This document shows positions 721-51,310 of a DNA stretch of 64,000 nt, piece by piece. The stretch's first letter is position 1. Every line of letters begins with the position of its first letter. The stretch is taken from the NCBI RefSeq assembly GCF_030684315.1, contig NC_081385.1, positions 19,993,247-20,057,246 of the forward strand. Direction: 5' to 3'. Position numbers and translations under genes: made by a program. Source of the stretch: Stegostoma tigrinum (Eukaryota). A model generated the notes under the pieces. It saw nothing but the letters and a program-made list of their open reading frames with translations. It made no database searches and had not been told where the DNA came from.

Positions 721-874
721 ATGGCACACAATTTTACTGATGCTGATTGTTACGAAAAAAATTTTAATTCACGGATGTATTTGGAAACATATTTTATCTC
801 TCTATCTGGTCATGTACAGGATGAGAACTATATATCTTTTGTTCTGCAGAATTTGGTAAAAACTTTTTCAAATG
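721..874 (+). CDS. NNMT: NNMT/INMT-family methyltransferase paralogue A, coding exon 1 (MAHNFTDADCYEKNFNSRMYLETYFISLSGHVQDENYISFVLQNLVKTFSN-G)
   Basis: ATG at 721; 154-nt exon ending G|gtgagt (phase 1). F-T..Y...F..R.YLE.Y pattern as in the NNMT N-terminus; collinear with paralogue B exon 1. Symbol is family-level. Confidence 0.9.
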
Positions 875-2651: not shown

Positions 2652-3658
2652 AGAATAAAAGATTTAAATGTGATTTCCAAAAAATATGATGTTTGAAGAA
2701 ATGTTTTCACGCAATGATTGTTGGGAGTCTGGACTACACAGCCTGGAATTGTGGTGGAAGCATGTTCGATCAGGACATTTAAGAGGGTATGAGATGACTA
2801 TGTGAATTGAAACAATGTGCAGCAGCACAGGCTAAAGGCAAGAGAACATCATTAAGCCATGATCCTTATTTGGAGAAGCAGTGCAATGGACCAAATTATC
2901 ACCTTCTGCAGCAAAATGATTCTCTGATCCTATAATGGTCAGAAATGCTGATTTTAGTTACTATTTGTTAATCATGCCTTGGGTGTGGTTAAATGACGTT
3001 GTGATTTTCAAAAACCATGGCATAATTCAAATCAGGATATCGTGTGACTTGGAGAAGAGCTTATAGGAATTAGGTTGTGCTACCATGCTTCTGTTGCTTT
3101 CAGGCGGCACAGATTAAAGGTGCTTTTGAAGGAACTTCTTAAATTCTGTGTCTTTTCTCATGCGACTTTGCAGCCCTTGCAATATTTTTGTTATGCCTTA
3201 TGGTTTTATTTTAACATTCTTATTCACCAGCATATGTGTCTTTATAATTTATTTTTGTACATTTTTTCTTTCAGATTTTATATTGTCTCTAATTTCGTTA
3301 GTCATCAAAGTACTTATTTTGGTTGACAGGATACTTCCTTGGGGGTATAATCTGGATCAATTTATGAATTTTTTTTTGAATGCCTGTTGCTGAATTTCTG
3401 TCAGTTAACCCTATACCAAGGTTGCCCAACATACTGTGGGTAGTCTCTGTTTAATTACATTCAGGTCAACATTTCCTAAACTTTAAATCATAGTAACTGC
3501 TTTGTGTTTCTATCTTTCTAATACAATATCGAAGTTTATTATATTTAGAATTTTTAATACATATTCATGCACCTGTATATTGTGAACTAAATCTACGTGA
3601 TAAGTCAGTACTAATATATATATATATATATCTAATAGGGCATACCATCTTGCTAATT

Positions 3659-4648
3659 AGAACATAGAACATAGAACAGTACAGCACAGAACAGGCCCTT
3701 CAGCCCACAATGTTGTGCCGACCATTGATCCTCATGGATGCACCCTCAAATTTCTGTGACCATATGCATGTCCAGCAGTCTCTTAAATGACCCCAATGAC
3801 CTTGCTTCCACAACTGCTGCTGGCAACGCATTCCATGCTCTCACAACTCTCTGCGTAAAGAACCTGCCTCTGACATCCCCTCTATACTTTCCACCAATCA
3901 GCTTAAAACTATGACCCCTCGTGCTAGCCATTTCTGCCCTGGGAAATAGTCTCTGGCTATCGACTCTATCTATGCCTCTCATTATCTTGTATACCTCAAT
4001 TAGGTCCCCTCTCCTCCTCCTTTTCTCCAATGAAAAGAGACCGAGCTCAGTCAACCTCTCTTCATAAGATAAGCCCTCCAGTCCAGGCAGCATCCTGGTA
4101 AACCTCCTCTGAACCCTCTCCAAAGCATCCACATCTTTCCTATAATAGGGCGCCCAGAACTGGACGCAGTATTCCAAGTGCGGTCTAACCAAAGTTTTAT
4201 AGAGCTGCAACAAGATCTCACGACTCTTAAACTCAATCCCCCTGTTAATGAAAGCCAAAACACCATATGCTTTCTTAACAACCCTGTCCACTTGGGTGGC
4301 CATTTTAAGGGATCTATGTATCTGCACACCAAGATCCCTCTGTTCCTCCACGCTGCCAAGAATCCTATCCTTAATCCTGTACTCAGCTTTCAAATTCGAC
4401 CTTCCAAAATGCATCACCTCGCATTTATCCAGGTTGAACTCCATCTGCCACCTCTCAGCCCATCTCTGCATCCTGTCAATGTCCCGCTGCAGCCTACAAC
4501 AGCCCTCTACACTGTCAACGACACCTCCGACCTTTGTGTCGTCTGCAAACTTGCTGACCCATCCTTCAATTCCCTCGTCCAAGTCATTAATAAAAATTAC
4601 AAACAGTAGAGGCCCAAGGACAGAGCCCTGTGGAACCCCACTCACCAC
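3659..4648 (-). mobile_element. 5'-truncated young CR1 LINE, copy 1 (C-terminal RT part of ORF2, open frame 3746-4648)
   Basis: SGVPQGSVLGPLLF, KFADDTK, LYKTLVRPHLEYC and FFTQRVV..WNALP motifs; (ATGTTCT)n 3' tail at 3659-3678. Confidence 0.95.
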
Positions 4649-5582
4649 TCTAACAGTAATAGTCATAGTTTCTTACTATACATCCTGTCCATTATTAAAA
4701 CCAAGTACATTCACATCCGTAACACAGGAAACTTTGAACTTGCCTTAACTTCGGTGCTGCTGAAACTTTCCAATACCAATTCTTTCTAAGACAGACAAAG
4801 CAAATGCTGGTATTCATGTCAATTTGTTATTAATTGGGCCACAGTGACTATCCCCAATTTATTACTATTCAGGATGGGTTACACCAAAATGGTTATGCTC
4901 CCAGGTGAAGAGGAATGGATTGGCTGCCCTTCTTAATTCAACACTCTTGCTTGGCCCCAACAAATTTAATTTGAAAAGTATCCCTTGCCTCACAATGCCT
5001 TTTCCTAACCCAATTAGATTTTTCTTTTAAATAGAACCAAATTAACCAGGATCTCTTGAATTAAAGGAAAAAGGATGAATTTGTTGGCTGTGAAACATGA
5101 GAAATGTTAATTAAATGCAACACACATACCATGTAAATTAAGTAGAGGCAACAGTTGAAAAGAAATGCAAAGTGTAAACTCTTGCTCCCACATTGTATGC
5201 TCACATTGAGTTTATATTAATGGACAGTAAGCTATTTATCTATGAAAAATTAAAATAAAAGCAGAGACGGAGCAATTAGATTGTATAGGGACAGTAACTG
5301 AAAGCTGAGGGCGATGTTCCCTCTCGGGTGTGTGACTGCGTGTTGTGTGCATTGTGTTCCACACACAATTATGGGAGTGATGTCACCATGTTCCACAAGC
5401 TGCTACCATGGCAGTCCACACAGAAGAACAAAGAATGAGAAAGAACACTGGTTCGGAGACTGGCAATGTGATTAATTGAACACACAAGAAACATTTGATT
5501 CAACTTATGAATCCTTTCAATCTTAGCGGATTTGCATTACTCCTTCCCTCTGATTGGTTATCTGGCATTTGAATTTTCCTAG

Positions 5583-5787
5583 GTCCAAAACTGCAGACCC
5601 TGCTTGAAATTGGATGTGGTCCCACTCTTCACTGTGCTCTCTGTGCCACAGAATATGTGGAGGAAATTGTTTTGTCTGATTTTGCTTCGAGCAACCGTAA
5701 GGAGATTGAGCTGTGGATACAAAATGACCCAGGAGATTTCGACTGGAGCCTAATTGCAAAACGTGTGTGTGAACTGGAAGGCAACAG
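5583..5787 (+). CDS. NNMT: Methyltransferase A exon 2, copy 1 (PKLQTLLEIGCGPTLHCALCATEYVEEIVLSDFASSNRKEIELWIQNDPGDFDWSLIAKRVCELEGN-R)
   Basis: ttttcctag| acceptor and AG|gtaatt donor; 205 nt, phase 1 to 2. SAM-binding motif I (LLEIGCGP), FDWS and CELEGNR typical of NNMT/INMT/PNMT. Confidence 0.9.
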
Positions 5788-7020
5788 GTAATTATTAAGT
5801 AGCCCTGATTTCTTTTTTAACCAAACTTGCCTCTTTAACAACTAACCCCACTCCCACAGCTACCTTCATATCCCCACCCCATCTTACTATGTGTCATTCC
5901 CATAACAACTCGTCACTCGGTTGATATCCAGTGAAAGACCAGCACTCCTGTAGCTGCATCCCTTTAATCCAATGCCACACTTTTTCCAAAATTCACTATG
6001 GACTCACGGTTTTTCCTAGTGCAGGAGGCAAATATCACATGCAGGCAAACAATTGGACCAATCCATATATAAGCCTTTATTTACAGACAGCAAACATGAA
6101 CCCAAACAAAAGCAACTTAAACTGATATTCTCTCCACAATTAAAAGAGAGATCATAAGCAACGAATATTTTACAGTCTACAATTGTCTGCTGTACTCAGC
6201 TCTCAACCATTGGATGCAGGTGCAATGAGATTCAGTATGGCTCGTAACACCCTTAACATGGACAAAGACAGCTTCCTCCTCCTCCTCACAAGACTGCTCC
6301 CACTCACCCAGTTCCTCAGCTTTGAGCACATTGCCTTGTTGCCTGCTGTAAGTACAACACAGCAGGATGGTGCAGCGTCCTCCATTCAGACTATACTGGA
6401 CAGCCCCTCCCCACAGGAGCAGAACCATATCTTCAACAGAGCATCCAAGTTCAGCGGGCAATACAGAAGGCAAATGGAATGCTGGCCTTTATTTCAAAGG
6501 AAATGGAGCATAGAATTAGCATAGTTTCTTGCTGAAACTATATAAGGCAGTAGTCAGCCTTATGGTTTTATTTTAACATTCTTATTCACCAGCATATGTG
6601 TCTTTATAATTTATTTTTGTACATTTTTTCTTTCAGATTTTATATTGTCTCTAATTTCGTTAGTCATCAAAGTACTTATTTTGGTTGACAGGATACTTCC
6701 TTGGGGGTATAATCTGGATCAATTTATGAATTTTTTTTTGAATGCCTGTTGCTGAATTTCTGTCAGTTAACCCTATACCAAGGTTGCCCAACATACTGTG
6801 GGTAGTCTCTGTTTAATTACATTCAGGTCAACATTTCCTAAACTTTAAATCATAGTAACTGCTTTGTGTTTCTATCTTTCTAATACAATATCGAAGTTTA
6901 TTATATTTAGAATTTTTAATACATATTCATGCACCTGTATATTGTGAACTAAATCTACGTGATAAGTCAGTACTAATATATATATATATATATCTAATAG
7001 GGCATACCATCTTGCTAATT

Positions 7021-8010
7021 AGAACATAGAACATAGAACAGTACAGCACAGAACAGGCCCTTCAGCCCACAATGTTGTGCCGACCATTGATCCTCATGGA
7101 TGCACCCTCAAATTTCTGTGACCATATGCATGTCCAGCAGTCTCTTAAATGACCCCAATGACCTTGCTTCCACAACTGCTGCTGGCAACGCATTCCATGC
7201 TCTCACAACTCTCTGCGTAAAGAACCTGCCTCTGACATCCCCTCTAGACTTTCCACCAATCAGCTTAAAACTATGACCCCTCGTGCTAGCCATTTCTGCC
7301 CTGGGAAATAGTCTCTGGCTATCGACTCTATCTATGCCTCTCATTATCTTGTATACCTCAATTAGGTCCCCTCTCCTCCTCCTTTTCTCCAATGAAAAGA
7401 GACCGAGCTCAGTCAACCTCTCTTCATAAGATAAGCCCTCCAGTCCAGGCAGCATCCTGGTAAACCTCCTCTGAACCCTCTCCAAAGCATCCACATCTTT
7501 CCTATAATAGGGCGCCCAGAACTGGACGCAGTATTCCAAGTGCGGTCTAACCAAAGTTTTATAGAGCTGCAACAAGATCTCACGACTCTTAAACTCAATC
7601 CCCCTGTTAATGAAAGCCAAAACACCATATGCTTTCTTAACAACCCTGTCCACTTGGGTGGCCATTTTAAGGGATCTATGTATCTGCACACCAAGATCCC
7701 TCTGTTCCTCCACGCTGCCAAGAATCCTATCCTTAATCCTGTACTCAGCTTTCAAATTCGACCTTCCAAAATGCATCACCTCGCATTTATCCAGGTTGAA
7801 CTCCATCTGCCACCTCTCAGCCCATCTCTGCATCCTGTCAATGTCCCGCTGCAGCCTACAACAGCCCTCTACACTGTCAACGACACCTCCGACCTTTGTG
7901 TCGTCTGCAAACTTGCTGACCCATCCTTCAATTCCCTCGTCCAAGTCATTAATAAAAATTACAAACAGTAGAGGCCCAAGGACAGAGCCCTGTGGAACCC
8001 CACTCACCAC
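7021..8010 (-). mobile_element. 5'-truncated CR1 LINE, copy 2
   Basis: Identical to copy 1 except G7247 (Tyr to Ser in ORF 7108-8028). Confidence 0.95.
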
Positions 8011-8944
8011 TCTAACAGTAATAGTCATAGTTTCTTACTATACATCCTGTCCATTATTAAAACCAAGTACATTCACATCCGTAACACAGGAAACTTTGAA
8101 CTTGCCTTAACTTCGGTGCTGCTGAAACTTTCCAATACCAATTCTTTCTAAGACAGACAAAGCAAATGCTGGTATTCATGTCAATTTGTTATTAATTGGG
8201 CCACAGTGACTATCCCCAATTTATTACTATTCAGGATGGGTTACACCAAAATGGTTATGCTCCCAGGTGAAGAGGAATGGATTGGCTGCCCTTCTTAATT
8301 CAACACTCTTGCTTGGCCCCAACAAATTTAATTTGAAAAGTATCCCTTGCCTCACAATGCCTTTTCCTAACCCAATTAGATTTTTCTTTTAAATAGAACC
8401 AAATTAACCAGGATCTCTTGAATTAAAGGAAAAAGGATGAATTTGTTGGCTGTGAAACATGAGAAATGTTAATTAAATGCAACACACATACCATGTAAAT
8501 TAAGTAGAGGCAACAGTTGAAAAGAAATGCAAAGTGTAAACTCTTGCTCCCACATTGTATGCTCACATTGAGTTTATATTAATGGACAGTAAGCTATTTA
8601 TCTATGAAAAATTAAAATAAAAGCAGAGACGGAGCAATTAGATTGTATAGGGACAGTAACTGAAAGCTGAGGGCGATGTTCCCTCTCGGGTGTGTGACTG
8701 CGTGTTGTGTGCATTGTGTTCCACACACAATTATGGGAGTGATGTCACCATGTTCCACAAGCTGCTACCATGGCAGTCCACACAGAAGAACAAAGAATGA
8801 GAAAGAACACTGGTTCGGAGACTGGCAATGTGATTAATTGAACACACAAGAAACATTTGATTCAACTTATGAATCCTTTCAATCTTAGCGGATTTGCATT
8901 ACTCCTTCCCTCTGATTGGTTATCTGGCATTTGAATTTTCCTAG

Positions 8945-9149
8945 GTCCAAAACTGCAGACCCTGCTTGAAATTGGATGTGGTCCCACTCTTCACTGTGCT
9001 CTCTGTGCCACAGAATATGTGGAGGAAATTGTTTTGTCTGATTTTGCTTCGAGCAACCGTAAGGAGATTGAGCTGTGGATACAAAATGACCCAGGAGATT
9101 TCGACTGGAGCCTAATTGCAAAACGTGTGTGTGAACTGGAAGGCAACAG
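8945..9149 (+). CDS. NNMT: Methyltransferase A exon 2, copy 2
   Basis: Identical to 5583-5787 including splice sites; which copy is spliced cannot be told from sequence. Confidence 0.8.
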
Positions 9150-10382
9150 GTAATTATTAAGTAGCCCTGATTTCTTTTTTAACCAAACTTGCCTCTTTAA
9201 CAACTAACCCCACTCCCACAGCTACCTTCATATCCCCACCCCATCTTACTATGTGTCATTCCCATAACAACTCGTCACTCGGTTGATATCCAGTGAAAGA
9301 CCAGCACTCCTGTAGCTGCATCCCTTTAATCCAATGCCACACTTTTTCCAAAATTCACTATGGACTCACGGTCTTTCCTAGTGCAGGAGGCAAATATCAC
9401 ATGCAGGCAAACAATTGGACCAATCCATATATAAGCCTTTATTTACAGACAGCAAACATGAACCCAAACAAAAGCAACTTAAACTGATATTCTCTCCACA
9501 ATTAAAAGAGAGATCATAAGCAACGAATATTTTACAGTCTACAATTGTCTGCTGTACTCAGCTCTCAACCATTGGATGCAGGTGCAATGAGATTCAGTAT
9601 GGCTCGTAACACCCTTAACATGGACAAAGACAGCTTCCTCCTCCTCCTCACAAGACTGCTCCCACTCACCCAGTTCCTCAGCTTTGAGCACATTGCCTTG
9701 TTGCCTGCTGTAAGTACAACACAGCAGGATGGTGCAGCGTCCTCCATTCAGACTATACTGGACAGCCCCTCCCCACAGGAGCAGAACCATATCTTCAACA
9801 GAGCATCCAAGTTCAGCGGGCAATACAGAAGGCAAATGGAATGCTGGCCTTTATTTCAAAGGAAATGGAGCATAGAATTAGCATAGTTTCTTGCTGAAAC
9901 TATATAAGGCAGTAGTCAGCCTTATGGTTTTATTTTAACATTCTTATTCACCAGCATATGTGTCTTTATAATTTATTTTTGTACATTTTTTCTTTCAGAT
10001 TTTATATTGTCTCTAATTTCGTTAGTCATCAAAGTACTTATTTTGGTTGACAGGATACTTCCTTGGGGGTATAATCTGGATCAATTTATGAATTTTTTTT
10101 TGAATGCCTGTTGCTGAATTTCTGTCAGTTAACCCTATACCAAGGTTGCCCAACATACTGTGGGTAGTCTCTGTTTAATTACATTCAGGTCAACATTTCC
10201 TAAACTTTAAATCATAGTAACTGCTTTGTGTTTCTATCTTTCTAATACAATATCGAAGTTTATTATATTTAGAATTTTTAATACATATTCATGCACCTGT
10301 ATATTGTGAACTAAATCTACGTGATAAGTCAGTACTAATATATATATATATATATCTAATAGGGCATACCATCTTGCTAATT

Positions 10383-11372
10383 AGAACATAGAACATAGAA
10401 CAGTACAGCACAGAACAGGCCCTTCAGCCCACAATGTTGTGCCGACCATTGATCCTCATGGATGCACCCTCAAATTTCTGTGACCATATGCATGTCCAGC
10501 AGTCTCTTAAATGACCCCAATGACCTTGCTTCCACAACTGCTGCTGGCAACGCATTCCATGCTCTCACAACTCTCTGCGTAAAGAACCTGCCTCTGACAT
10601 CCCCTCTATACTTTCCACCAATCAGCTTAAAACTATGACCCCTCGTGCTAGCCATTTCTGCCCTGGGAAATAGTCTCTGGCTATCGACTCTATCTATGCC
10701 TCTCATTATCTTGTATACCTCAATTAGGTCCCCTCTCCTCCTCCTTTTCTCCAATGAAAAGAGACCGAGCTCAGTCAACCTCTCTTCATAAGATAAGCCC
10801 TCCAGTCCAGGCAGCATCCTGGTAAACCTCCTCTGAACCCTCTCCAAAGCATCCACATCTTTCCTATAATAGGGCGCCCAGAACTGGACGCAGTATTCCA
10901 AGTGCGGTCTAACCAAAGTTTTATAGAGCTGCAACAAGATCTCACGACTCTTAAACTCAATCCCCCTGTTAATGAAAGCCAAAACACCATATGCTTTCTT
11001 AACAACCCTGTCCACTTGGGTGGCCATTTTAAGGGATCTATGTATCTGCACACCAAGATCCCTCTGTTCCTCCACGCTGCCAAGAATCCTATCCTTAATC
11101 CTGTACTCAGCTTTCAAATTCGACCTTCCAAAATGCATCACCTCGCATTTATCCAGGTTGAACTCCATCTGCCACCTCTCAGCCCATCTCTGCATCCTGT
11201 CAATGTCCCGCTGCAGCCTACAACAGCCCTCTACACTGTCAACGACACCTCCGACCTTTGTGTCGTCTGCAAACTTGCTGACCCATCCTTCAATTCCCTC
11301 GTCCAAGTCATTAATAAAAATTACAAACAGTAGAGGCCCAAGGACAGAGCCCTGTGGAACCCCACTCACCAC
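10383..11372 (-). mobile_element. 5'-truncated CR1 LINE, copy 3
   Basis: ORF 10470-11390 identical to copy 1. Confidence 0.95.
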
Positions 11373-12306
11373 TCTAACAGTAATAGTCATAGTTTCTTAC
11401 TATACATCCTGTCCATTATTAAAACCAAGTACATTCACATCCGTAACACAGGAAACTTTGAACTTGCCTTAACTTCGGTGCTGCTGAAACTTTCCAATAC
11501 CAATTCTTTCTAAGACAGACAAAGCAAATGCTGGTATTCATGTCAATTTGTTATTAATTGGGCCACAGTGACTATCCCCAATTTATTACTATTCAGGATG
11601 GGTTACACCAAAATGGTTATGCTCCCAGGTGAAGAGGAATGGATTGGCTGCCCTTCTTAATTCAACACTCTTGCTTGGCCCCAACAAATTTAATTTGAAA
11701 AGTATCCCTTGCCTCACAATGCCTTTTCCTAACCCAATTAGATTTTTCTTTTAAATAGAACCAAATTAACCAGGATCTCTTGAATTAAAGGAAAAAGGAT
11801 GAATTTGTTGGCTGTGAAACATGAGAAATGTTAATTAAATGCAACACACATACCATGTAAATTAAGTAGAGGCAACAGTTGAAAAGAAATGCAAAGTGTA
11901 AACTCTTGCTCCCACATTGTATGCTCACATTGAGTTTATATTAATGGACAGTAAGCTATTTATCTATGAAAAATTAAAATAAAAGCAGAGACGGAGCAAT
12001 TAGATTGTATAGGGACAGTAACTGAAAGCTGAGGGCGATGTTCCCTCTCGGGTGTGTGACTGCGTGTTGTGTGCATTGTGTTCCACACACAATTATGGGA
12101 GTGATGTCACCATGTTCCACAAGCTGCTACCATGGCAGTCCACACAGAAGAACAAAGAATGAGAAAGAACACTGGTTCGGAGACTGGCAATGTGATTAAT
12201 TGAACACACAAGAAACATTTGATTCAACTTATGAATCCTTTCAATCTTAGCGGATTTGCATTACTCCTTCCCTCTGATTGGTTATCTGGCATTTGAATTT
12301 TCCTAG

Positions 12307-12511
12307 GTCCAAAACTGCAGACCCTGCTTGAAATTGGATGTGGTCCCACTCTTCACTGTGCTCTCTGTGCCACAGAATATGTGGAGGAAATTGTTTTGTC
12401 TGATTTTGCTTCGAGCAACCGTAAGGAGATTGAGCTGTGGATACAAAATGACCCAGGAGATTTCGACTGGAGCCTAATTGCAAAACGTGTGTGTGAACTG
12501 GAAGGCAACAG
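12307..12511 (+). CDS. NNMT: Methyltransferase A exon 2, copy 3
   Basis: Identical to 5583-5787 including splice sites. Confidence 0.8.
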
Positions 12512-13184
12512 GTAATTATTAAGTAGCCCTGATTTCTTTTTTAACCAAACTTGCCTCTTTAACAACTAACCCCACTCCCACAGCTACCTTCATATCCCCA
12601 CCCCATCTTACTATGTGTCATTCCCATAACAACTCGTCACTCGGTTGATATCCAGTGAAAGACCAGCACTCCTGTAGCTGCATCCCTTTAATCCAATGCC
12701 ACACTTTTTCCAAAATTCACTATGGACTCACGGTCTTTCCTAGTGCAGGAGGCAAATATCACATGCAGGCAAACAATTGGACCAATCCATATATAAGCCT
12801 TTATTTACAGACAGCAAACATGAACCCAAACAAAAGCAACTTAAACTGATATTCTCTCCACAATTAAAAGAGAGATCATAAGCAACGAATATTTTACAGT
12901 CTACAATTGTCTGCTGTACTCAGCTCTCAACCATTGGATGCAGGTGCAATGAGATTCAGTATGGCTCGTAACACCCTTAACATGGACAAAGACAGCTTCC
13001 TCCTCCTCCTCACAAGACTGCTCCCACTCACCCAGTTCCTCAGCTTTGAGCACATTGCCTTGTTGCCTGCTGTAAGTACAACACAGCAGGATGGTGCAGC
13101 GTCCTCCATTCAGACTATACTGGACAGCCCCTCCCCACAGGAGCAGAACCATATCTTCAACAGAGCATCCAAGTTCAGCGGGCA

Positions 13185-13555
13185 ATACAGAAGGCAAATG
13201 GAATGCTGGCCTTTATTTCAAAGGAAATGGAGCATAGAATTAGCATAGTTTCTTGCTGAAACTATATAAGGCAGTAGTCAGATCTCAACTGGAATATTGT
13301 GAACAGTTTTGCGACTTATCTAAAGAAAGATATACTGGCATTGAAGACAGTCTCTAGGCCAATACCAGGAAAGGACAGACTGTCATATGAGGAGAAGTTG
13401 AGGACATTGGGTCTCTACTTGTTGGAAATAGAAAAATGAGAGGCAACCCTATTGAAACATACAAGATTCTTAGGAGACTTAACAGGGTAAATGTGGAATG
13501 ATTGTTTCCCCTTGTGGTTGAATCTATGACAGAGGGCATAATCGTAGAATACGAG
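13185..13555 (+). mobile_element. Decayed CR1 ORF2 3' fragment spanning the right triplication breakpoint
   Basis: 'ctgaaactatataaggcagtagtcagatctcaactggaatattgtgaacagttt' reads LKLYKAVVRSQLEYCEQF; followed by 'ttgaaacatacaagattcttagg'. Confidence 0.75.
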
Positions 13556-13829
13556 ATAAGAGAAGCCATGCTGGCTCTGCTCTGCTATTACAAGCTTTAT
13601 CCAACCGAAAAGGGATATTACTCACAACGAACACGCTTTTGAGCTGGGTTGTTGGAATGTCCTTCCTCTCAGACTCAGAGCTGGCCCTCTTCCATGAAAA
13701 TAGGACTTGTAGGTCAGGGAGGATCCTCTCCTGGGTCTTCTTGTGTTGCTATACAGTCTTCTACCACAAGTCTTGCTGCGAGTCCTCACTGAGGGAATGG
13801 CTTCCAGGTGTGTGTTTCATTGACACATC

Positions 13830-16470
13830 ACATAAATCGACAAGTCACATAGATCCCATGCATCTTAATCTTCTGGATAAGCCTACCATGAGGGACCTTG
13901 TTGAATACCTTACTGGAATTCATGAAAACAACATCCACTGCTCTACCCTTATTGATCGAAAATCTCGAGGGGGTAACAATCAAGTTAATAAGACATGGAC
14001 TGCGCTGCACAAAGCCATGCCGACTGTCCCTAAATAGGCCATGCTTTTCCAAATGTGCGTAAATCCTATCCTTAACAATTCTCTCCAATAGCTTCACAAC
14101 CACTGATGTGAGACCCACCAGTCTCTAATTTTCTGGAATATCCCTATTTCCTTTTCTGAACAGATAAACGTTAGTTACTCACCAAACCTACGGGACATCT
14201 CTAGTGGCTAGTGAGGACACAAAGGCCTTTGCCAAGGCCCCAGCAATCTCCTATCTCACCATTCTCATTAATCTGGGGTAGATACCATAGGGTCCTGGGG
14301 ACTTACTCACTTTAGTACTCTTCAAGAGATCCAACACCACTTCCTTCTTCATCTCAAAATGCCCTAGCGTTTTAGCATGTTCCACACAAATCTCACTATC
14401 CTCCATATCCTTTTCCTGGGTGAATACTAATACAAAATACTCGTTTAGGACATCACTCACATTCGCTACCTCCAAGCACAAATTCCCCCCTTTATCTTTG
14501 AGTGGTCCTAACTTCTCCCTAGTTATCCTCTTCTTTTTGATGTATCTATAGAATGCCTTAGGATTCTCTTTAATCCTACTTGCTAAGGTCATTTCATGGT
14601 CACTTCTTGCTCTCCAAATTCCCTACTTGAGTACTTTCCTGATTTCCTTATATTCCTTACTGGCCCTGTGCGGTTTTATCTTCCTAAATCTTACATATGC
14701 TTCTTTTATCCTTTTGACTAAATTCACAACCTCCCTCATTATCCAAGGCCCCCTTACCTTGCCATCCTTATCCTACCTCATTACTGGAAGATGCCAATCT
14801 TGAACTCTCTCCAACAGGTCTTTAAACAGTTCCAACATGTCAAATGTGGACTTGCCTAATAACAACTCCTCCCAATTAACACTCCCTAGCTCCTGTCTAA
14901 TGCTGATGTAATTCACTTTCCCCCAATTTGGTGCCCTCCTGCAATGTCCTGACTTACCCTTGTTCATAGCTATCTTAAAATGTAAGGGGTTGTGATCACT
15001 GTTACCAAAATGCTCTCCCACTGAAAAGACAGTCATCTGGCCAGGGACATTAACTAATACAAAGTCCAGTATAGCTCCTCCTCTAGTTGGACTATTCACA
15101 TACTGTTTCAAGAAACCCTCTTGGATGCACATAACAAATTCCATCCCATCTAAGCCTTTTCCTGTAAGGGAGTCCCAGCAAATACCAGGGAAGTTAAAGT
15201 CAACCACTATGACAACTCTGTTTTATTGCTCCTTTCCATAATCTGCCTAAATATTTGTTCCTCAGTCTCTCTGTGGCTGTTGGGAGGCCTGTAGTATAAT
15301 TCAAGCAGAATTATTGTACCCATTTTATTTTTGAGCTCTACCCACATTGCCTCGGTGATGAGCCTTCCAGTGCAGATGTAACATTCTCCCTGATTAGTAA
15401 TGCAACTCCTCCATCTCTTTTACCTTCCTCTCTATCTCGTCTAAAACGACAAAATGCCTGGAACATTGAACAGCCAGTCCTGTCATTCATTCAGCCAAGT
15501 ATCTGTAATGGCCATAGCATCATAATCCCATGTACTGATCCAGGCTGTAAGATCATCTACTTTACCTTTAATACTCCCTGCATTGAAATAAACACCCTTC
15601 AGCCCATTAGTATGAACATGTGTTCATTTATGTGTCTCTGCTTCTCTTTTCTTTTGGATTTACTGATCGTAACATCTACCTTCCTCTCAATCCCTCCACT
15701 TGCTGACCTGCTGCTCTGGTTCCCAGCCCACTGCTACTCTAGTTTAAACTCTCCCAAGTAGCACGAGATAACCTCCCTGCGAGGATATCGGTTCCCCTCC
15801 AGTTTAAGTGCAGCCCATCCCTCTTGCAAAGGTCATTCCTGCCCCAGGAGAGATCCCAACGATCCAAGAAACTGAAATCCTGCCCCCTGCACTTGGTCCT
15901 TCTCCACACAATTATCTTACCTATCTTTCTATTCCTTGGCTCACTAGCACGTGGCACCGACAGTAACCCAGAGATTACTGCCCTCGAGATAACAAAGTGT
16001 GGAGCGGGATGAACACAGCAGACCAAGCAGCATCTCAGGAGCACCAAAGCTGACGTTTCAGGCCTAGTCCCTTCATCAGAGACATCTACCTGACTGAACC
16101 TCCAGTGTAACCACATCCCTGTAACTAGTGTCTATTACACTCTCTGCCCCTGCATGCTCCATAGTGTATCCAACTGCTGCTCCGACCAAACAATGCGGTC
16201 TGTGAGGAGTTGCAACCTGTCACACTTCCTGCAGACATAGTCATCAGAGACACTAGACTGCTGCCTGATCTCCCACATCTGGCAGGAAGAGCACACCACT
16301 GCTCTAACTGCCATCTCTGCCCCTTCTTACTAAGAAAGATAAAAGAATCTTACCTTGCCTGCCTTATTCACTGAAGCCCCGTATTCACCTAAACCCACAC
16401 TTACACCGATTAGCTGCACTGACTGGTTCCTTATGTTACCGTGCATTCTTTACAAGCAGACCAAATACCT
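13830..16470 (-). mobile_element. Old, internally deleted CR1 LINE: 5'UTR, ORF1 (zinc-finger/zipper plus SGNH esterase), APE endonuclease and RT N-terminus
   Basis: ATG at 16314 gives MAVRAVVCSSCQMWE...DYVCRKCDRLQLL. Esterase motif DLCKRDGLHLNWRG (15739-16116 ORF). Endonuclease DFNFPGICW, PTRGGAILD, SDHN (14773-15207). Also IKENPKAFYRY...KSPGP and LTSVVVKLLE...HGF. Many stops and frameshifts. Confidence 0.9.
15987..16080 (-). mobile_element. PLE terminal fragment nested in the CR1 ORF1
   Basis: 'gataacaaagtgtggagcgggatgaacacagcagaccaagcagcatc...gctgacgtttcaggcctagtcccttcatcag'. Confidence 0.7.
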
Positions 16471-16799: not shown

Positions 16800-17540
16800 A
16801 TTTTCCGGGGATCTTCAGAAGCTGAGGGGTAACCTTATAGAACTTTTAAAAAATCATGAAGGGTATCAATAGAGTGAATAGACAAGGTCTTTTTCCCAGA
16901 ATAAGGGAGTCCAAAGCGAGAGGGATAGGTTTAAGGTGAGAGGGGAAAGATTTAAAAGGGACCTAAGGAATAACCTTTTCATGCAGAGGGTGGTGTGTGT
17001 ATGGAATGAACTGCCAGAGAAAGTGGTGGAGGCTGGTACAATTACATTTAAAAGGCATCTGGTTGGGTATATGAATGGGAAGGTTTTTGAGGGTTATGGG
17101 TCAAATGCTGATCAATGAGACTAGATTAGTTTGGAGTTTTGAAGAATGAGAAATGATCTCATTGAAGCACATAGCATTCCTATGGGGCTTGACAGAATAA
17201 ATACTGCGAGGTTGTATCCCCTAATGGGTGAATCCAGGACCAGAGTGAAGACCAGACTCAGAATAAAGGGATGCCTATTTAAGACTGAGATGTGGAGGTA
17301 TTTCATCTCTCAAATGGTTATGAGACTTCGGAACTCCTTTCAATAGAGAGCTGTGCTGCTAGAGTCCTTGTGTATATTTTAGGCTGTGATAAATAGATCC
17401 CTGATCAGTTAGGTAATCAAAGTCTAAGGGCAGGAAAGTGGAAGTAAGGAATATCAGAACAACCATGATCGCATGGAAGGGTGGAACAATCTCAAGGGGC
17501 TGAGCAACCTATTCCTGTTCCTATGTTTTATGGTCTGAAG
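16800..17540 (+). mobile_element. Two adjacent decayed CR1 3' fragments
   Basis: ORFs 16936 (RGERFKRDLRNNLFMQRVVCVWNELP) and 17146 (RNDLIEA..GLDR...FISQMVMRLRNS) are CR1 ORF2 C-termini. Confidence 0.8.
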
Positions 17541-17661: not shown

Positions 17662-18073
17662 GGGAAAATGGATGGAGAAAGAGAAGAAGCTAAGGGATTC
17701 CATTAAGCAAGTTTTGAAGTGTGATGTTCATCAAAGTAACCCTCTGCATCCAGTACAACTGGAACCTGTTGACTGCATATTGACAGCCTCATGCCTCGAG
17801 GCTGCCTGTAAGGATGAAGCAGCTTACCGCACTGCTGTTAGAAATATAACCTCTCTGCTAAAACCAGGTGGGGTGCTCATTATTATTGGTGACATGAACC
17901 AGGCTGTTTATAAGGTCAATGAGTACAACTTCTCAATCTTGCCACTTGATCGTACATTAATGAAAAATGCTTTGGAGGAAGCTGACTGTGAGATTAAACA
18001 GTTGGAAACATGTAAATCAGTCACTTGGTCAGGCAATGACATGATATTTTTCCTAGTTGCTCAAAAGAAATAA
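17662..18073 (+). CDS. NNMT: Methyltransferase A exon 3 (GKWMEKEKKLR...KCDVHQSNPL...CLEAACKD...LLKPGG...FFLVAQKK*)
   Basis: tcttacag| acceptor, phase 2, 412 nt to TAA. With one exon 2 the CDS is 154+205+412 = 771 nt (256 aa). KCDV, LLKPGG and LVA.K family motifs. Confidence 0.92.
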
Positions 18074-20783: not shown

Positions 20784-20937
20784 ATGGAACTAAGTTTTAC
20801 TGACGGAAATTATTATGAGAAAAAGTTTGACTCTCGCATTTATTTGGAAACATATTATGCTTCTCCGCTTGGTAATCGCATGGAAAATGATTTTTTGCCT
20901 TTTGTTCTGAAGAATTTGGTAAAAGTTTTTTCCGGGG
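20784..20937 (+). CDS. NNMT: NNMT/INMT-family methyltransferase paralogue B, exon 1 (MELSFTDGNYYEKKFDSRIYLETYYASPLGNRMENDFLPFVLKNLVKVFSG)
   Basis: aaaATGG start context; 154 nt; G|gtgagt donor; YLETYY motif. Confidence 0.93.
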
Positions 20938-21235
20938 GTGAGTAAGGTTTTTGGCTTTCATAACCGAACTGAATTGCTCAATGTTGTTCTGAAGGGCGAC
21001 ACCCTAACTTGTGAATCTCTGACTGCAACTTTACAGATCAGTTAACTTATTGCTCATTGGAATTTCTAGTTACTTTAATCAGTGTATTCAGGACAGGTGA
21101 GACTTGAACACATCCTCCAGTCTCAGAGGTAGGGGGTACATGAACCCCAATATACAGGGCTAGAATCTGATCCTTCTGGCTCAAGGAAGGGATATTACCA
21201 CTGTGCCAGAAGAGGGCTCACAAAACACATTTTTT

Positions 21236-21458
21236 TATGGATGTGAGTTTGCTCGCTGAGCTGGAAGGTTAGTTTTCAGATGTTTCATCACCATTCTAGG
21301 TAACATCATCAGTGAGCCTCCGACGAAGCTCTCCGATGAAGGGTCTAGGCCCAAAACGTCAGCTTTTGTGCTCCTGAGATGCTGCTTGGCCTACTGTGTT
21401 CATCCAGCTTCACACTTTATTATCTTGGATTCTCCAGCATCTGCAGTTCCCATCATCA
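21236..21458. mobile_element. Two back-to-back PLE terminal fragments (- at 21236-21330, + at 21333-21458)
   Basis: 'gagtttgctcgctgagctggaagg..ttttcagatgtttcatcaccattctaggtaacatcatcagtgag' abuts 'gatgaagggtctaggcccaaaacgtcagc...ctccagcatctgcag'. Confidence 0.7.
21276..21315 (-). ncRNA. Minimal type I hammerhead-ribozyme-like motif in a PLE end
   Basis: Minus strand reads UCA CUGAUGA U GUUACC-uagaau-GGUGAU GAAAC AUC UGA: intact core boxes, paired stem II, 3-bp stem I, NUH triplet. Confidence 0.55.
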
Positions 21459-21460
21459 CT

Positions 21461-21669
21461 TATAATGAGGTCAACCGGCTGGAACTCACGGAATGTAAAT
21501 TCCCTGAATGGGGCTGTTAATCTGGCCGAATGACATGAAATGGTTGGGTTCAGAGATACTGACTCTCTGGTATCTGACACTATATGAGGCAGTACTATAG
21601 TCACAGACTGTTTATGTGCAGATAAAGGGGAGTTGCTGACAGGATAATAGCCTCTGTGGAGTTATTTCA
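21461..21669 (+). mobile_element. Short solo-LTR-like repeat, same family as 18364
   Basis: 'taatgaggtca..ttccctgaatggggctgttaatct...ataaaggg...ctgtggagttatttca'. Confidence 0.5.
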
Positions 21670-23149
21670 GAAGGATTTAATTGGGTAAGTGGGTATTAAT
21701 GTAGGAGTGACAGGATGGATTAGACTATTGAGCCCTTTTACACTGAAGTAGTGTAGACGTTCTGAGTGGCGGATCAGGCGAGACAAGCGAAGGCTTGCAG
21801 TGTTTGCCAGGAAGAGAGGAAAAGCTAATTGGGGCACATTTGACTGTGTGGTGAAGAGTATTCCATTATTAACTGTAAGAGAAAATGCCAAAGTCTACTG
21901 AAAGCAAGGGAATGAGGAGTAAAAGTTACCATCCAAGATGGTAATGGAGTAGGACTCCTGGGCCGGAGCTCGTACAGTCCATCCGTTTCTTTTTATTTCT
22001 GAGTTATTTTGTACCTGCCCTCGGCATCGGTGATGTCTGTATGGCGTGAAAGCCAGTACGGTCCCCTGGCCCCAATGCGGACCCGGATCCCCGCAACCAG
22101 CGCAGACCCCAGGCCCCAGCAGGGCCCCTGAGCCCAGGTCCCAGTGGCGATCCAGACTCCTGCTCTCAAGGTGAACTCCTGCACAGTCTGCGTTGCAATT
22201 ATTCTTTGTCCGAACGCTTGTTTCTCTATTTTTCTAACGCATTGCCAGGCTATTAATCTTTATTTCTCTTTTTTTTCCCTAAGAATTCACACTTAAGAAT
22301 CTGTACCTGAGATGAGCCAATAAGTGGTGACAGTAAACTTTTCACTGTGCCTACTTGAGAGGGTTTGATAATAAAGATAATTTAAATTCTGAAATGGGCT
22401 GCTTGGGCCAAGAATACAGGGTTTACGAAGGCCCTAAAACAGCCAACATAAGCATGTGCCCATTTTATACTCTGAAGTCCTTCCCCTGGCACAGTAGGTA
22501 ATGACAAACAAAAGATACCCTTACCCCATACCTGAGGGAGGCATTGGGCCAAATACAGATTCCTTCCTCAGGACTTCATTGCAATTTGTCAACACCCTGA
22601 GTGAGATAAGTTATACTGTCAGTCAATGCATTTGGAGCCATTTGCCCTCCAGGGTACAAGCAACAATGGGCCAAATGGCCACCCTCCTTCAATGCTGTAA
22701 CCATTCTGGGTGAGTCTAGGAGAGAAGTGATCATTTGAACTGAGGGAGGGATGAGAGAAAAGTTCAGGGGAGCATCAGTGTGTTCCAACTGGGGGGGAAT
22801 TGAGGAATTGGAAAGAGAAATGTTGCGGAAAGTAAAAGACTAAAGTCACCATCATCCCATGCTGTTCCTCGAGAGAGTGGCAGCTGGTGCTCAATATAAT
22901 TTGAGCATCACCATGTCTCAGGTCCATGATTACGTTAACTGTGTTATTGGTTCCAGCCTCTTCTTTTTTAGTCTTCTAGTGGGCCATTTGTTAAATGTTT
23001 AGTCGTAATTCAGCCCTAGAGTCCTGTATTTCAACCTCCTTGGGAATCTGCCGAGGTGGCCGTTACAGACCTGGGCAGTGGGGCATAGAGGGGCAAATAA
23101 ACATGGTTACCTGCTGCTCATTTGTGGTTCTGTCCATGTGCAGGTCAGA

Positions 23150-23292
23150 ACATTCTGAGGAAGGGTCACCGGATCCAAAACGTTAACTCTGATGTTTTTT
23201 CTTCACAGATGCTGCCAGACCTACTGAACGTTTCCAGCAACTTCTGTTTTTGTTCTTGATTTACCGCATCCGCAGTTCTTTCAGTTTTTATT
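23150..23292 (+). mobile_element. PLE terminal fragment with decayed hammerhead-like motif
   Basis: 'ttctgaggaagggtcaccggatccaaaacgttaactctg..cacagatgctgccagacc', same family as 44098-44237. Confidence 0.7.
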
Positions 23293-23758
23293 TACATTGC
23301 AGACCTTGAACACTTATCGTCTGAAATGGTTTTCCTCACGTCATTCTTGCTGCTTTTCTCAATTAATTTAAAACCCCTCCCCTTCATTCTCCATCCTTTT
23401 CATGAATGGGAGGAGTTTCTCTATCAAATACTCTCCACACCCTTTATCATTTCCAGCTCCAATGTAATGTTGAAGTTGGGGGTTAAAAACAGGTGAAAGG
23501 GTTTCCCAACGTTGCATATTATTGAGAAATTTCATTCCCTGACGTGCAATAGTTTAACTGTGAAGTAATATCACTATCATCAGGAAGCAATGGGGATGGT
23601 GAGAAGGAATGAAAAGTTACCCTGATTCTTGCATACCAACTCAAGGAGGTGAATGTTGATCTTCATAAATATCTCATAGCGGTTCCATCAATACTGCTCA
23701 TATTATACTTTACAACTTTATTTCCCAACTAATGACTGGGGGTTGATTTTTATTCCAG

Positions 23759-23963
23759 ATTCCAGATTCCACACCCTGCTTGAAATTGGATGTGGTCCCT
23801 GTCTTCACTGTGCTCTCTGTGCCACAGAGTATGTGGAGGAACTTGTTTTGTCTGATTATGCTTCCAACAATCGTCAGGAAATTGAGCAGTGGTTACAAAA
23901 TGATCCAAGAGCTTTTGACTGGAGCCCAGTTGCAAAATTTGTGTGTGAGCTAGAAGGCAACAG
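23759..23963 (+). CDS. NNMT: Methyltransferase B exon 2 (DSRFHTLLEIGCGPCLHC...FDWSPVAKFVCELEGN-R)
   Basis: ttccag| acceptor and AG|gtaatc donor; 205 nt; SAM motif I. Confidence 0.94.
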
Positions 23964-24120
23964 GTAATCAATAATAGCTCTGATATGCTTTGCTGTTTTT
24001 AATAGAAAAAACTGCCTATTGGTCCATATGCATGATCCAATTTATCACTGACACTTAAAGACCAAGCAAATTGTGGGTTTGATCCTTAAATTGCATTGAA
24101 TTACCTGACCTCCCCTGGTG

Positions 24121-24525
24121 TGATTTGATTTGATTTATTATGGCTGTGTACCAAGATTCAGTGAAAAGTATTGTTTTGTGTGCTATCCAAACAAATCATT
24201 ATAGGTACATCAAAGTAATTGAATGGAATGCAAAATATAGTGTTGCAGCTGCAGAGAAAGATCAACTTTAATATATGTGAGGCTCATTCATAAGTCTGAT
24301 AACAGCTATTCTTAAATCCGTGGAGGTGCTTTCAAACTTTTGTATCTTCTGCCTGATGGAAGAGAGTATGACTGAGGTTGGAGGTGTCTTTGTTTGTGTT
24401 GACTGCTCTCTCAAGGCAGCGGGAAGTGTTGACCAAACCAATGGGACAAAAGCTGGTTTTTGCGATGGACTGGGTTCCTTTCATAACTCTATCTCTTCAG
24501 GTCTTGGGCAGAGTAGTTGTCCCAC
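24121..24525 (-). mobile_element. Decayed LINE 3' end (Rex1/L2-like)
   Basis: (TGATT)n tail followed by 'tgtaccaagattcagtgaaaag', the reverse of a typical Rex1/L2-type 3' terminus. Confidence 0.5.
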
Positions 24526-25380
24526 TCTGGGTTTGAGGCACTCACTCCGGACTGGAACCTACTGCATTTAATCCTGACTGGAAGGCTGTCCTGTTAAAGA
24601 GTTTGCTCTGTTGGTTAGATATTAAATTGATTCTTGCACTTGTTCAAATGGACTTGATAGGTCCCAGAATTCAACAGCTACTAAACAACAATGGATAGAA
24701 AGAGCTAAAGCAGATGAGTAGCAAAAAAACCGAAATGGCACAACTGGCTTGAAAAGCTGAATAGACTCTTCTCATTTCAATGTTACTACTTTCCTTTCCT
24801 TCCACCCTACCAATCCTGTAACTTTGGTCTCTTCAGAATCCCCATTTTAATTTCTGTGGCATTGCAACCAATGTCTTCAGTCACCAAGGGCTGAGTTCTG
24901 GTTTCGTCTTCCTCACTCAATATCTGTTTCTTGTTTTAAGATGCTGTTTAGAATTCAGTTCTTAAACTAAGCTTTTGGCCATATTCCCTAAAATCGCGTT
25001 ATGTGACTCTCTCCAGTTTAATTTGATCTTGTTCGTGTGAATCTCCTTGAAATGTTTGTTTGTTAAAAGGTGCTGTACAAACCCAACTTGTTGTTGAAGA
25101 ACTTTAAAGACATGACAGAGTAAGGAAATTTTATTTCTTTAAATGAACATCAGCTGACAGAAATACTGTTGTTCACCTCTTTGTGCACATCAACCAGCAG
25201 AGTTCATCCCAAATCTGTCATCACTAAGTTTTTGTTGTGGATTATACCCTTGACTGGAAACTTGCCAGAGCAAACTTTAAGTTTGAAATTCACAATGCAA
25301 ATTGTTCCCTTTTAACATGGGACACTCTGAGTGTAATCTTTGTAGATTCTTACTTCAGGCACTGAGTTTGTATTTTTCAG

Positions 25381-25813
25381 GGAAAAATGGCCCGAGAAAG
25401 AAAAGAAACTGAGAGATTGCATCAAGCAAATTTTGAAGTGTGATGTTCATCAAAATAACCCTCTGCATCCAGTGGAATTAGAGCCCGTTGACTGTCTGAT
25501 GACTTCCTTGTGTCTGGAAGCTGCCTGTAAAGATGAAGCAGCTTACTGCTCTGCAGTTAGAAATGTAACCTCTCTGTTAAAACCTGGTGGGAAGCTCATT
25601 GTGGTCTCTGTTTTGAACGAGACCTTTTATACAGTGGATAAGTACAAGTTCTCATGTCTGAAATTTGATCAGGCCTTTTTGGAAAAAACTTTGAAGGAGG
25701 CGGGTTATGAAATAGAACAAGTTGAAATGTTTATTGCTCCCAAAACTATAAATACTATATCAGACTATGAGGCAGCAATCTTCTTGGTTGCTCGCAAGAG
25801 TGTTTTGTCCTGA
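25381..25813 (+). CDS. NNMT: Methyltransferase B exon 3 (EKWPEKEKKLR...KCDV...SLCLEAAC...LLKPGG...FLVARKSVLS*)
   Basis: tttttcag| acceptor; 433 nt. CDS 154+205+433 = 792 nt (263 aa). ATTAAA signals near 25871 and 25884. Confidence 0.95.
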
Positions 25814-37472: not shown

Positions 37473-37605
37473 NNNNNNNNNNNNNNNNNNNNNNNNNNNN
37501 NNNNNNNNNNNNNNNNNNNNNNNNNNNNNNNNNNNNNNNNNNNNNNNNNNNNNNNNNNNNNNNNNNNNNNNNNNNNNNNNNNNNNNNNNNNNNNNNNNNN
37601 NNNNN
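37473..37605. other. Assembly gap (133 N)
   Basis: Run of N. Confidence 1.
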
Positions 37606-49250: not shown

Positions 49251-50308
49251 TTTGTTTGGATTGACTGACATAAAATTTGCTGTTGTAATTTGCCTTTTAA
49301 AAAATTGTGACGTACATACTGAAAATCAGTTTGCTCAATGGGATAGTTAGGACGTGCTGACAGCTAATTCAATTAACAATATGTGGCAGATACATTACCA
49401 GACAAAATCTAAGCTAAACAGCCCATCGAGTCTATATTATTTTACTAGCGCCTCTCCGTTTACAGAGAGAAAAACAGAGTTTAAGCTTTAAGACCTACAT
49501 TCCCTTCAGAACAATATTAACTGTTTTCCTCTCTCCAGATGCTCCCAAACCCAAGTTTCTTCAGCACTTTGTTGATATCCCTTGATTTTTCTAAGTGTTT
49601 TCTAAGTGTTTCCTTCAAATGATTTTGCATCTTTGGCCTTTGCAACATATTCATTTAAGCTGGACTTGAAGATTATGTTGCTTTGTTTCAATTTTCCCCA
49701 AGAAGTTTCTCCATTTAACATTGTACATCTTGGGAGTAAAATCTTTCAATTTCATTTTCAGATAACATAATTATACCAAATCTTCTCATAGCTCAATTCC
49801 TTAATCGTGGATGAATTTTTACTTTCATCACATTTGGACATCACCAAAGCTAGTATTTGTTGATCTTCCCTAAGAAGTCCTTCTCAAAAGACTAGCACAA
49901 TCTTCTCAACAGATTCAGCATGAACTGTACTAAGTCAACCTTTTCGGTTTCCATTAGGCTTTGTTATCCTACATGCCAAGCATTTAATCAAATACCTCAG
50001 GTCGCTTGGGTTAATAAAAATCTGGTCACTCGCACATATACTGTTTGTGGGTGCTTCCTGTGTATACAGTACATCAATGGCGACTTCAGAATTTCTTCAT
50101 TGGCTGAGGATCTGTATGGACATTAAACATGTTATAGAAATGTAAGTCTGTATGTCTTTGCTCTGATCTCCTGACTCCGCTTGAAACTTCAAACGTGCCA
50201 CCTCACACATCCATTGGGTTAAAACAAGTAAATGAACCCAGCTGTGTGCCGTTCTGAGGAAGGAACATCGGGATAGAAACATTAACTCTGTTTCTCTCTT
50301 CACAGACC

Positions 50309-50955
50309 CCGTCCCGTCCCTCCCCCCACCGGCGCTGCCCCCCCCCCCAACCGTCCCACCCCGACCCTCCCAACCTGTCCCGCCCCACCACCCTGTTCCG
50401 ACCTGCCCTCCCACCCTGTCCTGCTCCGCCCCTCCCCACCGTTCATTCCCGCCTCACCCCCGCCACGTCCGTCCCACTCCTTCTGCCCGTCCCTACCCTC
50501 CCCACCGCCCTGCCCCTCCTCCCTCCCCAACCCCCGCCACGCCCTGCCCCATCCCTCCACACCCCACCCCTCCCACCACTACCCTCCCCTCCGCGCCGTC
50601 GTGCCCCTTCTGCTCCAACCCCCACTCTTCGTCCCACCCCACCCCCACACTCACCCCGCCCGCATCCCCCTGCCCACACCCCATCCCCCCGCCCGTACGC
50701 CCCCCCAACAGCCCCCGCCCCCCGTCTCCCCCTCCCCCCGCCCCCCCCTCCTCGCCCCGCCCCGCCCCCGTCTCACCCTCGCCCCGCCCCCCGTCTCACC
50801 CTCGCCCCGCCCCCCTCGCCCCGCCCCCCGTCTCACCCTCGCCCCGCCCCCCTCACCCCGCCCCCCGTCTCACCCTCGCCCCGCCCCCCGTCTCCCCGCC
50901 CCCCGTCTCCCCCTCGCCCCGCCCCCGTCTCCCCCTCGCCCCGCCCCCCTCCCGC
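50309..50955. repeat. C-rich low-complexity tract with short degenerate repeats (ctcgccccgccccccgtctcac)
   Basis: About 650 bp of C-runs, G-rich on the ANAPC13 sense strand. Confidence 0.9.
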
Positions 50956-50983
50956 CGATATACCGTCCGGGACTCTCCCTCAC

Positions 50984-51310
50984 CCCCAACAATCCCGATG
51001 AACGGTCCGGCCTCTCCCTGCCTCCCGGTCCCCCCCGATGAACGGTCCGGCCTCTCCCTGCCTCCCGGTCCCCCACGATGAACGGTCCGGCCTCTCCCTG
51101 CCTCCCGGTCCCCCACGATGAACGGTCCGGCCTCTCCCTTCCTCCCGGTCCCCCCCGATGAACGGTCCGCCCTCTCCCTGCCTCCCGGTCCCCCCCGATG
51201 AATGGTCCGGCCTCTCCCTGCCTCTCGGTCCCCCCAGATGAACGGTCCGGCCACAATCAGTAAATAATTGGAGTGAAGTGTTTGATTTCCGATGGAAGCT
51301 CACAGACTTT
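50984..51310 (-). other. ANAPC13: Probable non-coding exon 1 of ANAPC13 (5' end approximate)
   Basis: GG|gtgagg donor at 50984/50983 followed by G-rich intron-like sequence; no minus-strand ATG in the repeat. Confidence 0.5.
50995..51252. repeat. 40-bp minisatellite, 6 full copies plus a partial (gatgaacggtccggcctctccctgcctcccggtccccccc)
   Basis: 'aacggtccgg' recurs at 51001, 51041, 51081, 51121, 51161, 51201 and 51241 with few substitutions. Confidence 0.97.

Follow-up and report, generated by a model that had tools for sequence, protein, structure and literature searches.

Tandem repetition of a coding exon has been described in several settings. In human FANCB, a duplication of exon 3 led to an exon 3-exon 3 transcript whose junction carries a stop; the transcript level corresponded to that of the genomic duplication, and the duplication was undone by somatic reversion, according to an excerpt of the source (PMC5823675). 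Mutually exclusive exon (MXE) clusters are formed by homologous exons that lie in tandem and have the same length, and including them jointly shifts the reading frame (10.1101/133215; PMC6071210). A third class is artificial: false exon gains in assemblies, which are usually accompanied by a gap and low depth according to an excerpted source (PMC9516828). Here we analysed 64,000 nt of the zebra shark Stegostoma tigrinum (contig NC_081385.1, positions 19,993,247 to 20,057,246; hereafter the window, with positions counted from its first letter), in which the second coding exon of a methyltransferase-like gene, called gene A, is present in three near-identical units. We think it probable that this is a real intragenic tandem triplication, formed by a non-homologous junction and a later unequal crossover, and that it represents a near-null allele of the NNMT-like gene A through a premature stop and nonsense-mediated decay (NMD). 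As a mutation, the triplication is of a familiar class, the same as the FANCB exon-3 duplication.

The gene and the array comprise the following parts.

721..874, plus strand: gene A coding exon 1, 154 nt, single copy, ending in phase 1; donor ATG/GTGAGT; Pfam PF01234 positions 5-51, E 7e-07.
3195..6556, plus strand: repeat unit 1, 3362 bp, with the tail of intron 1, an antisense long interspersed nuclear element (LINE), presumably of CR1 type, exon 2 copy 1 and the head of intron 2; haplotype T/T.
5583..5787, plus strand: exon 2 copy 1, 205 nt, phase 1 to 2, with the EIGCGP glycine motif and the D85/N90 columns; Pfam PF01234 positions 57-121, E 4e-22.
6557..9918, plus strand: repeat unit 2, 3362 bp; haplotype G/C, with a private T>G at 7247.
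8945..9149, plus strand: exon 2 copy 2, 205 nt, identical; when it follows copy 1 in the reading frame, a TGA stop falls at 8967-8969.
9919..13280, plus strand: repeat unit 3, 3362 bp; haplotype T/C.
12307..12511, plus strand: exon 2 copy 3, 205 nt, identical, from the spliced-frame analysis.
17662..18073, plus strand: third coding exon of gene A, 412 nt, running to the stop codon and present once; Pfam PF01234 positions 124-261, E 2e-37.

Self-BLAST of the array aligned 6725 nt at 99.955% identity, and comparison of positions 3195 to 9919 with the sequence at an offset of 3362 gave three mismatches. Among the three units only 2 of 3362 columns vary, namely unit position 691 (T/G/T at 3885/7247/10609) and unit position 2817 (T/C/C at 6011/9373/12735), and no indels separate the units, a T9 run and an (AT)9 tract included. 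Both internal junctions are identical and gap-free (gtagtca/gccttatgg). One further base, G13281, is shared past unit 3, which amounts to 1-bp microhomology. The units lie head-to-tail in direct orientation within the single gene A, and every exon 2 copy has both splice sites, with acceptor CCTAG/ and donor CAG/GTAATT. Such a pattern is far beyond chance. A preliminary description of this DNA had reported three 3362-bp units differing at two single-nucleotide polymorphisms (SNPs), each with an identical exon 2 and intact splice sites, between single copies of exons 1 and 3; self-BLAST, the offset comparison and the coordinates all reproduced this, with boundaries at 3195-13280.

The array might also have been created during assembly, through haplotypes that failed to collapse, gaps filled wrongly or a graph loop traversed more than once, in which case the true copy number would be one, or at least not three. 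We regard this as rather unlikely, though far from negligible. The pairwise identities of 99.94-99.97% are within the allelic or error range and the junction falls in the remnant of a repeat family, which gives substance to the earlier caveat about an artefact. The window also holds a gap of 133 N, and false exon gains are a described class, some of them joined gap-free by wrong gap filling, as the excerpted source has it (PMC9516828). The resemblance extends to near-identical adjacent exon copies on one scaffold and to an odd partial '-like' gene model. Unlike the usual cases of this class, however, the shark array has no gap between its duplicates (no N in 3195-13281), its junction, although non-homologous, occurs twice in exactly the same form, and its units make up three haplotypes that differ by substitutions only. 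The 133-N run, the only one in the window, lies at 37473-37605, 24 kb from the array, and its flanks do not overlap (longest shared word, 13 nt). No similar exact duplication was found elsewhere in the 64 kb, where exact 60-mer repeats are absent except for five in a tandem repeat near 51 kb. Moreover, a 1-kb GC-rich low-complexity tract at 50.3-51.3 kb was resolved, which hints at long reads. The integer copy number, the identical gap-free junctions and the lack of indels favour a real array, as do the three unit haplotypes, which exceed what two alleles of one diploid could supply directly. Even with a real junction, the copy number could be wrong.

Two elements bear on how the array could have arisen.

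13155..13537, plus strand: decayed sense-strand LINE remnant, identified by tblastn and translation, which holds the right breakpoint and keeps a collinear frame past it (…LYKAVVRSQLEYCEQF…).
3749..4672, repeated at 7111-8034 and 10473-11396, minus strand: open 308-codon frame of a young 5'-truncated LINE that we take to be of CR1 type, reverse transcriptase end; Pfam RVT_1, E 5e-13.

The left breakpoint (3195) lies in unique AT-rich sequence of intron 1, and BLAST of 400 nt from each breakpoint gave no match at E 1e-3. Since the breakpoints share no homologous repeats, non-allelic homologous recombination was ruled out as the origin of the first junction; microhomology of 1 bp has a chance probability of 45%. 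In the first step, replication slippage, end-joining or template switching would have fused position 6556, in the old LINE remnant of intron 2, to position 3195 in intron 1, and exon 2 would have been copied together with 2388 nt of upstream and 769 nt of downstream sequence. Unequal crossover between the two copies would then have given three, with the same junction. The young antisense LINE, which lies away from both breakpoints, is cargo. It spans 3655-4672 on the minus strand (copies at 7017-8034 and 10379-11396) and has a short tandem 3' tail; a Tyr in its frame becomes Ser through the private SNP at 7247. In its unique part, intron 2 is to a large extent made up of a longer decayed antisense LINE with an endonuclease domain (13700-16400, minus strand; Pfam Exo_endo_phos_2, E 8e-06).

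The consequences for the reading frame were followed by scripted joins of the exons. With no exon 2 copy the frame stops at 61 aa, within the last exon; a single copy gives 256 aa, while two or three copies both end at 127 aa with the tail RSKTADPA. This agrees with the frame logic proposed earlier, in which only transcripts with exactly one copy encode the enzyme. The premature stop is located 180 nt (two copies) or 385 nt (three copies) before the last junction. NMD generally acts on premature stops more than 50-55 nt upstream of the last junction, and both distances are well beyond this limit. A direct repeat with its own splice sites inside one gene and a stop at such a distance are among the features that characterise a loss-of-function tandem exon duplication. 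Three copies add up to 615 nt and restore the frame by length, but rescue in this way was ruled out, as the stop in copy 2 comes first. If translated, the doubled-exon product would lack all 136 residues of exon 3.

All copies have full splice signals and kilobases of identical context, and for this reason exon definition should include them all; most transcripts would then contain two or three copies. Such transcripts would end translation at codon 128, with 180 nt or more left to the last junction and all of exon 3 lost, and by the established rule NMD would remove them. Full-length mRNA would come only from skipping of two copies or from recombination that returns the array to one copy. Assuming independent inclusion of the copies, exactly one of the three is retained in 0.7% of cases at an inclusion rate of 0.95 and in 2.7% at 0.9, with a ceiling of 44%. 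The stop is predicted to be NMD-competent, and the earlier proposal of loss or damping of gene A gains support from the frame. A back-spliced circle of exon 2 would have the same exon 2-exon 2 junction as a linear doubled transcript, so a count of such junctions in RNA-seq cannot separate the two. We also observed that the array adds AATAAA hexamers at 7951, 8616, 11313 and 11978 (copies of those at 4589 and 5254), downstream of exon 2 copies 1 and 2, which could cause premature polyadenylation; near the end of gene A exon 3, AATAAA occurs at 18069 and 18253.

The likeness to FANCB exon 3 is close. In both cases one coding exon and its flanking intron are repeated head to tail with short microhomology at the junction, the exon-exon join brings a stop just past the junction, and the array can revert by recombination. 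The shark gene differs in having three copies rather than two and 1-bp rather than 4-bp microhomology. It also comes from the assembled genome of a wild species, has a redundant paralogue, and is known here from sequence alone.

A public protein model points to another outcome, in which two exon 2 copies are translated in frame as one protein. This model is P0001, the sole database protein that matches gene A: a partial Stegostoma tigrinum NNMT-like entry of 276 aa with the order exon 2-exon 2-exon 3. In-frame options are indeed open within the exon (an internal donor at +114, ACC/GTAAGG, and internal AGs at +109 and +166). Such a protein is nevertheless the outcome to which we give the least credence. 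The join in P0001 (5578-5787 to 8940-9149) needs an acceptor 5 nt upstream of the normal one, and that position is preceded by TT instead of AG. The sole in-frame upstream AG (-56) is closed off by a TGA, the internal donor agrees with the consensus at 5 of 9 positions and the true donor at 8 of 9, and P0001 lacks exon 1. We rejected P0001 as proof of a doubled-exon protein because of the non-AG acceptor that it requires in the window. Nor did we accept it as independent proof of the array, as it may derive from the same assembly as the window. It does show that an annotated assembly contains at least two exon 2 copies, and it is probably a wrong annotation forced into frame by the array.

The preliminary description had further suggested that the array might be a starting point for mutually exclusive exons. 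In a fuller form of this idea, the antisense LINE in the units pairs with sense remnants in the flanks and loops out extra copies, NMD clears the remainder and gene A is dimmed. This is improbable in our estimate. A frameshift on joint inclusion is present here; in the excerpted source, no feature is more common among human MXE clusters (377 clusters, 60%; 10.1101/133215). [quoted passage not shown] Inverted matches occur on both sides of the array, for example 3804-3991 with 16847-17033 (65% over 191 nt; -157 against -87 kcal/mol for shuffles), and some antisense/sense LINE pairings would leave one exon 2 copy. For all 4 pairs tried, none of 100 shuffles reached the score, the pairs having been chosen after the fact. 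However, they were picked from repeats that are homologous in any case, and when the same geometry was slid along the rest of the window, the 5' score was equalled or exceeded at 10 of 41 positions, the 3' score at 15 and both at 6, these positions overlapping. By this positional control, docker/selector pairing does not rise above background. Since the two candidate arms are located upstream of the exon, skipping of all copies would follow from some pairings.

The steric and U12 routes to exclusion are lacking. The introns between copies measure 3157 nt and leave no steric block, for which the donor should lie under 50 nt from the branch point; none of the 4 donors is U12-type, all sites being U2-type. 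The copies encode the same peptide and thus bring no gain yet, and a frameshift removes products without choosing an exon. Being identical, they would look alike in junction reads as far as exon sequence goes. The shark array therefore shares with the MXE clusters of the two excerpted sources (10.1101/133215; PMC6071210) its tandem homologous exons of equal length and the frame shift on joint inclusion, and differs in that its copies are identical and have no steric, U12 or above-background docker/selector feature. The suggestion of a starting point holds as regards the frameshift and fails for the steric and U12 routes, and its RNA pairing is at background level. Equally hard to credit is a stronger version, in which the array is shared among zebra sharks, LINE pairing and NMD already make the three exons mutually exclusive, and copy number (1, 2 or 3, shifting through unequal crossover) works as a reversible dimmer. 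If true, a mutually exclusive cluster would have been caught before its exons diverged. It would concern a methyltransferase specific to sharks whose acceptor pocket is new, and would put to a natural test the model by which competing structures follow from duplication of a stem arm.

Returning to the near-null allele, its age can be approached through the differences between units. The epaulette-shark mutation rate is given as 7e-10 per bp per generation (interval 1.4-14.1e-10) in an excerpt of PMC10587355. At this rate two private substitutions correspond to a star depth of 2.8e5 generations (3.4e4-1.0e6, Poisson error alone), that is roughly 10^4-10^6 generations with a rate borrowed from another species. 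Over that span 0.02-0.5 coding substitutions are expected, so the intact frame of gene A is silent on selection since the event. The age could be near zero if the unit differences are allelic or errors, and gene conversion could make the array older than estimated. [quoted passage not shown] The array had previously been called very recent; this is apt in terms of sequence but less so in time, where the differences would represent about 2.8e5 generations if new and leave the age unconstrained if they are allelic or consensus errors.

As for what would be lost, exons 1, 2 and 3 of gene A match PF01234 consecutively with 29, 79 and 129 bits (cut-off 25), which places the gene in the NNMT/PNMT/TEMT family of class I S-adenosylmethionine (SAM)-dependent small-molecule methyltransferases. 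Among solved structures the nearest to it is NNMT (E 5e-57), followed by INMT and PNMT, and like human NNMT the gene has three coding exons. In comparison with rodent NNMT, gene A keeps the G63, G65, D85, N90 and D142 columns, which we take to include the SAM-binding glycine motif and the acidic residue that follows strand 2, together with the further SAM-side and core columns Y11, F15, Y20, C165 and Y204. The acceptor pocket, by contrast with these, is changed (L164S, C213I, S163A, E201Q) and the C-terminal loop is shortened. Column 164 is L in 10 of 11 other shark proteins, and the C213 and S163 columns are invariant in all 11.

Changes of L164 reduce or abolish the activity of human INMT (excerpt of PMC10844679), and in human NNMT both Y20 and D197 are indispensable (excerpt of PMC8956669). 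Gene A does not have both features of a nicotinamide N-methyltransferase proper, for it keeps Y20 and lacks D197: column 197 holds Gly, with an Asp at 198, and Asp is absent there in all 12 shark proteins. It departs from the family pattern by Gly at 197, Ser at 164 and Glu at 167, the last as in INMT; an INMT-like Glu at 167 was observed in at least 11 of the 12 shark proteins. Because of these two columns, the name 'NNMT-like' may misstate the activity of the shark proteins. Judging by its residues, gene A appears to be a relaxed or specialised family member and a candidate methyltransferase, which may once have had its own substrate.

Gene A has an intact neighbour.

20784..25813, plus strand: tandem paralogue B, 263 aa, exons 20784-20937, 23759-23963 and 25381-25813, with exon phases as in A.

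Gene B starts 2.7 kb past the stop codon of gene A, and its spliced translation is identical to P0009, a Stegostoma tigrinum NNMT-like protein. The two proteins share 62.5% identity, with a synonymous divergence (dS) of 0.575, a nonsynonymous divergence (dN) of 0.235 and dN/dS of 0.41 (bootstrap 0.28-0.59). In exon 2 (5583-5787 against 23759-23963) the nucleotide identity is 87.5% and dS is 0.26, as opposed to 0.57 and 0.82 in exons 1 and 3; the counts are small, and the lower value is a possible sign of old gene conversion between A and B. The visual impression that the TATA box of A has decayed by comparison with that of B was discarded, as the local alignment of the 200 nt upstream was matched by 528 of 1000 shuffles. 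We built a tree of A and 20 named proteins chosen out of 127, leaving out P0001, the Heterodontus PNMT-like P0045, fused or partial models and unnamed records. Gene B paired with a Chiloscyllium protein with full support, and gene A fell in an open fork of 12 shark rows. Among the 12 shark paralogues compared, A has the longest branch (0.52, the others 0.03-0.31), and it departs from 12 of the 100 columns that are invariant in the other 11 shark proteins, while those depart from 0-7. In a relative-rate test, 5 of 8 outgroups pointed to A as the faster-changing protein.

Another possibility is that gene A was silent or dispensable before the triplication and that the array is neutral debris, which we hold to be very improbable. 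The pocket changes L164S, C213I and S163A and the shortened loop would fit this explanation, given that L164 matters in INMT, and no close A orthologue from another shark was found among the matches listed (best 60-70% identity). Yet there is no stop or frameshift in 771 nt, the splice sites are intact, the SAM-side and core columns are kept, dN/dS is 0.41, and an altered pocket equally fits a new substrate. Because A was already the most divergent shark paralogue and intact B lies nearby, loss of A may matter little, and a near-null allele of this fast-evolving paralogue would probably be tolerated.

Several observations weigh against the near-null allele as we describe it. At 0.04%, the units diverge less than alleles do in a related shark, and the figure is near the consensus-error level; a diversity of 0.002 (excerpt of PMC10587355) leads one to expect 6.7 allelic differences per unit. 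In FANCB the aberrant transcript was abundant, 82% in fibroblasts according to the excerpt (PMC5823675), which indicates that NMD can be less than complete. Of the 4 bony-vertebrate outgroups, a single one gave a significant relative-rate test, and the 4 shark outgroups may not be true outgroups. The open frame of gene A and its dN/dS of 0.41 against B suggest that the gene was useful until late. On the supporting side, an intact 256-aa A was found neither among 59 protein matches nor among the best 120 of 147 in a second search, and none of 5 candidate proteins of 91-2000 aa scored against A exon 1; this last search is weak, having missed exon 1 of other sharks as well.

Further scans and features of the window were as follows. 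Rfam gave no matches in 1-26000, and of 9 candidate frames at 33-62 kb one had a weak Pfam match (E 0.046). An exon-like frame, FWLMKSEPESRIENGVDVK, at about 59400-59490 on the plus strand is followed by a GT donor and has no Pfam match; it presumably resembles the start of the THYN1 EVE domain. The GC-rich low-complexity tract at 50300-51260 contains 37-75-nt and 40-nt tandem repeats beside a CpG-rich stretch, and possibly is a promoter region. Among the open-access papers listed, we found none on the gene A locus, judged by title or abstract start.

On the present sequence, the array reads as a correctly observed further case of an allele type already known, located in a redundant paralogue. 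Neither outcome would surprise a specialist. If the array is false, it is a false exon gain already behind a wrong public protein model, P0001. If it is real, it would be a clean natural example of a tandem paralogue lost through exon triplication, and it would offer a ready test of how the vertebrate spliceosome deals with identical constitutive exons in three copies, a situation that models of MXE origin take as their first step.

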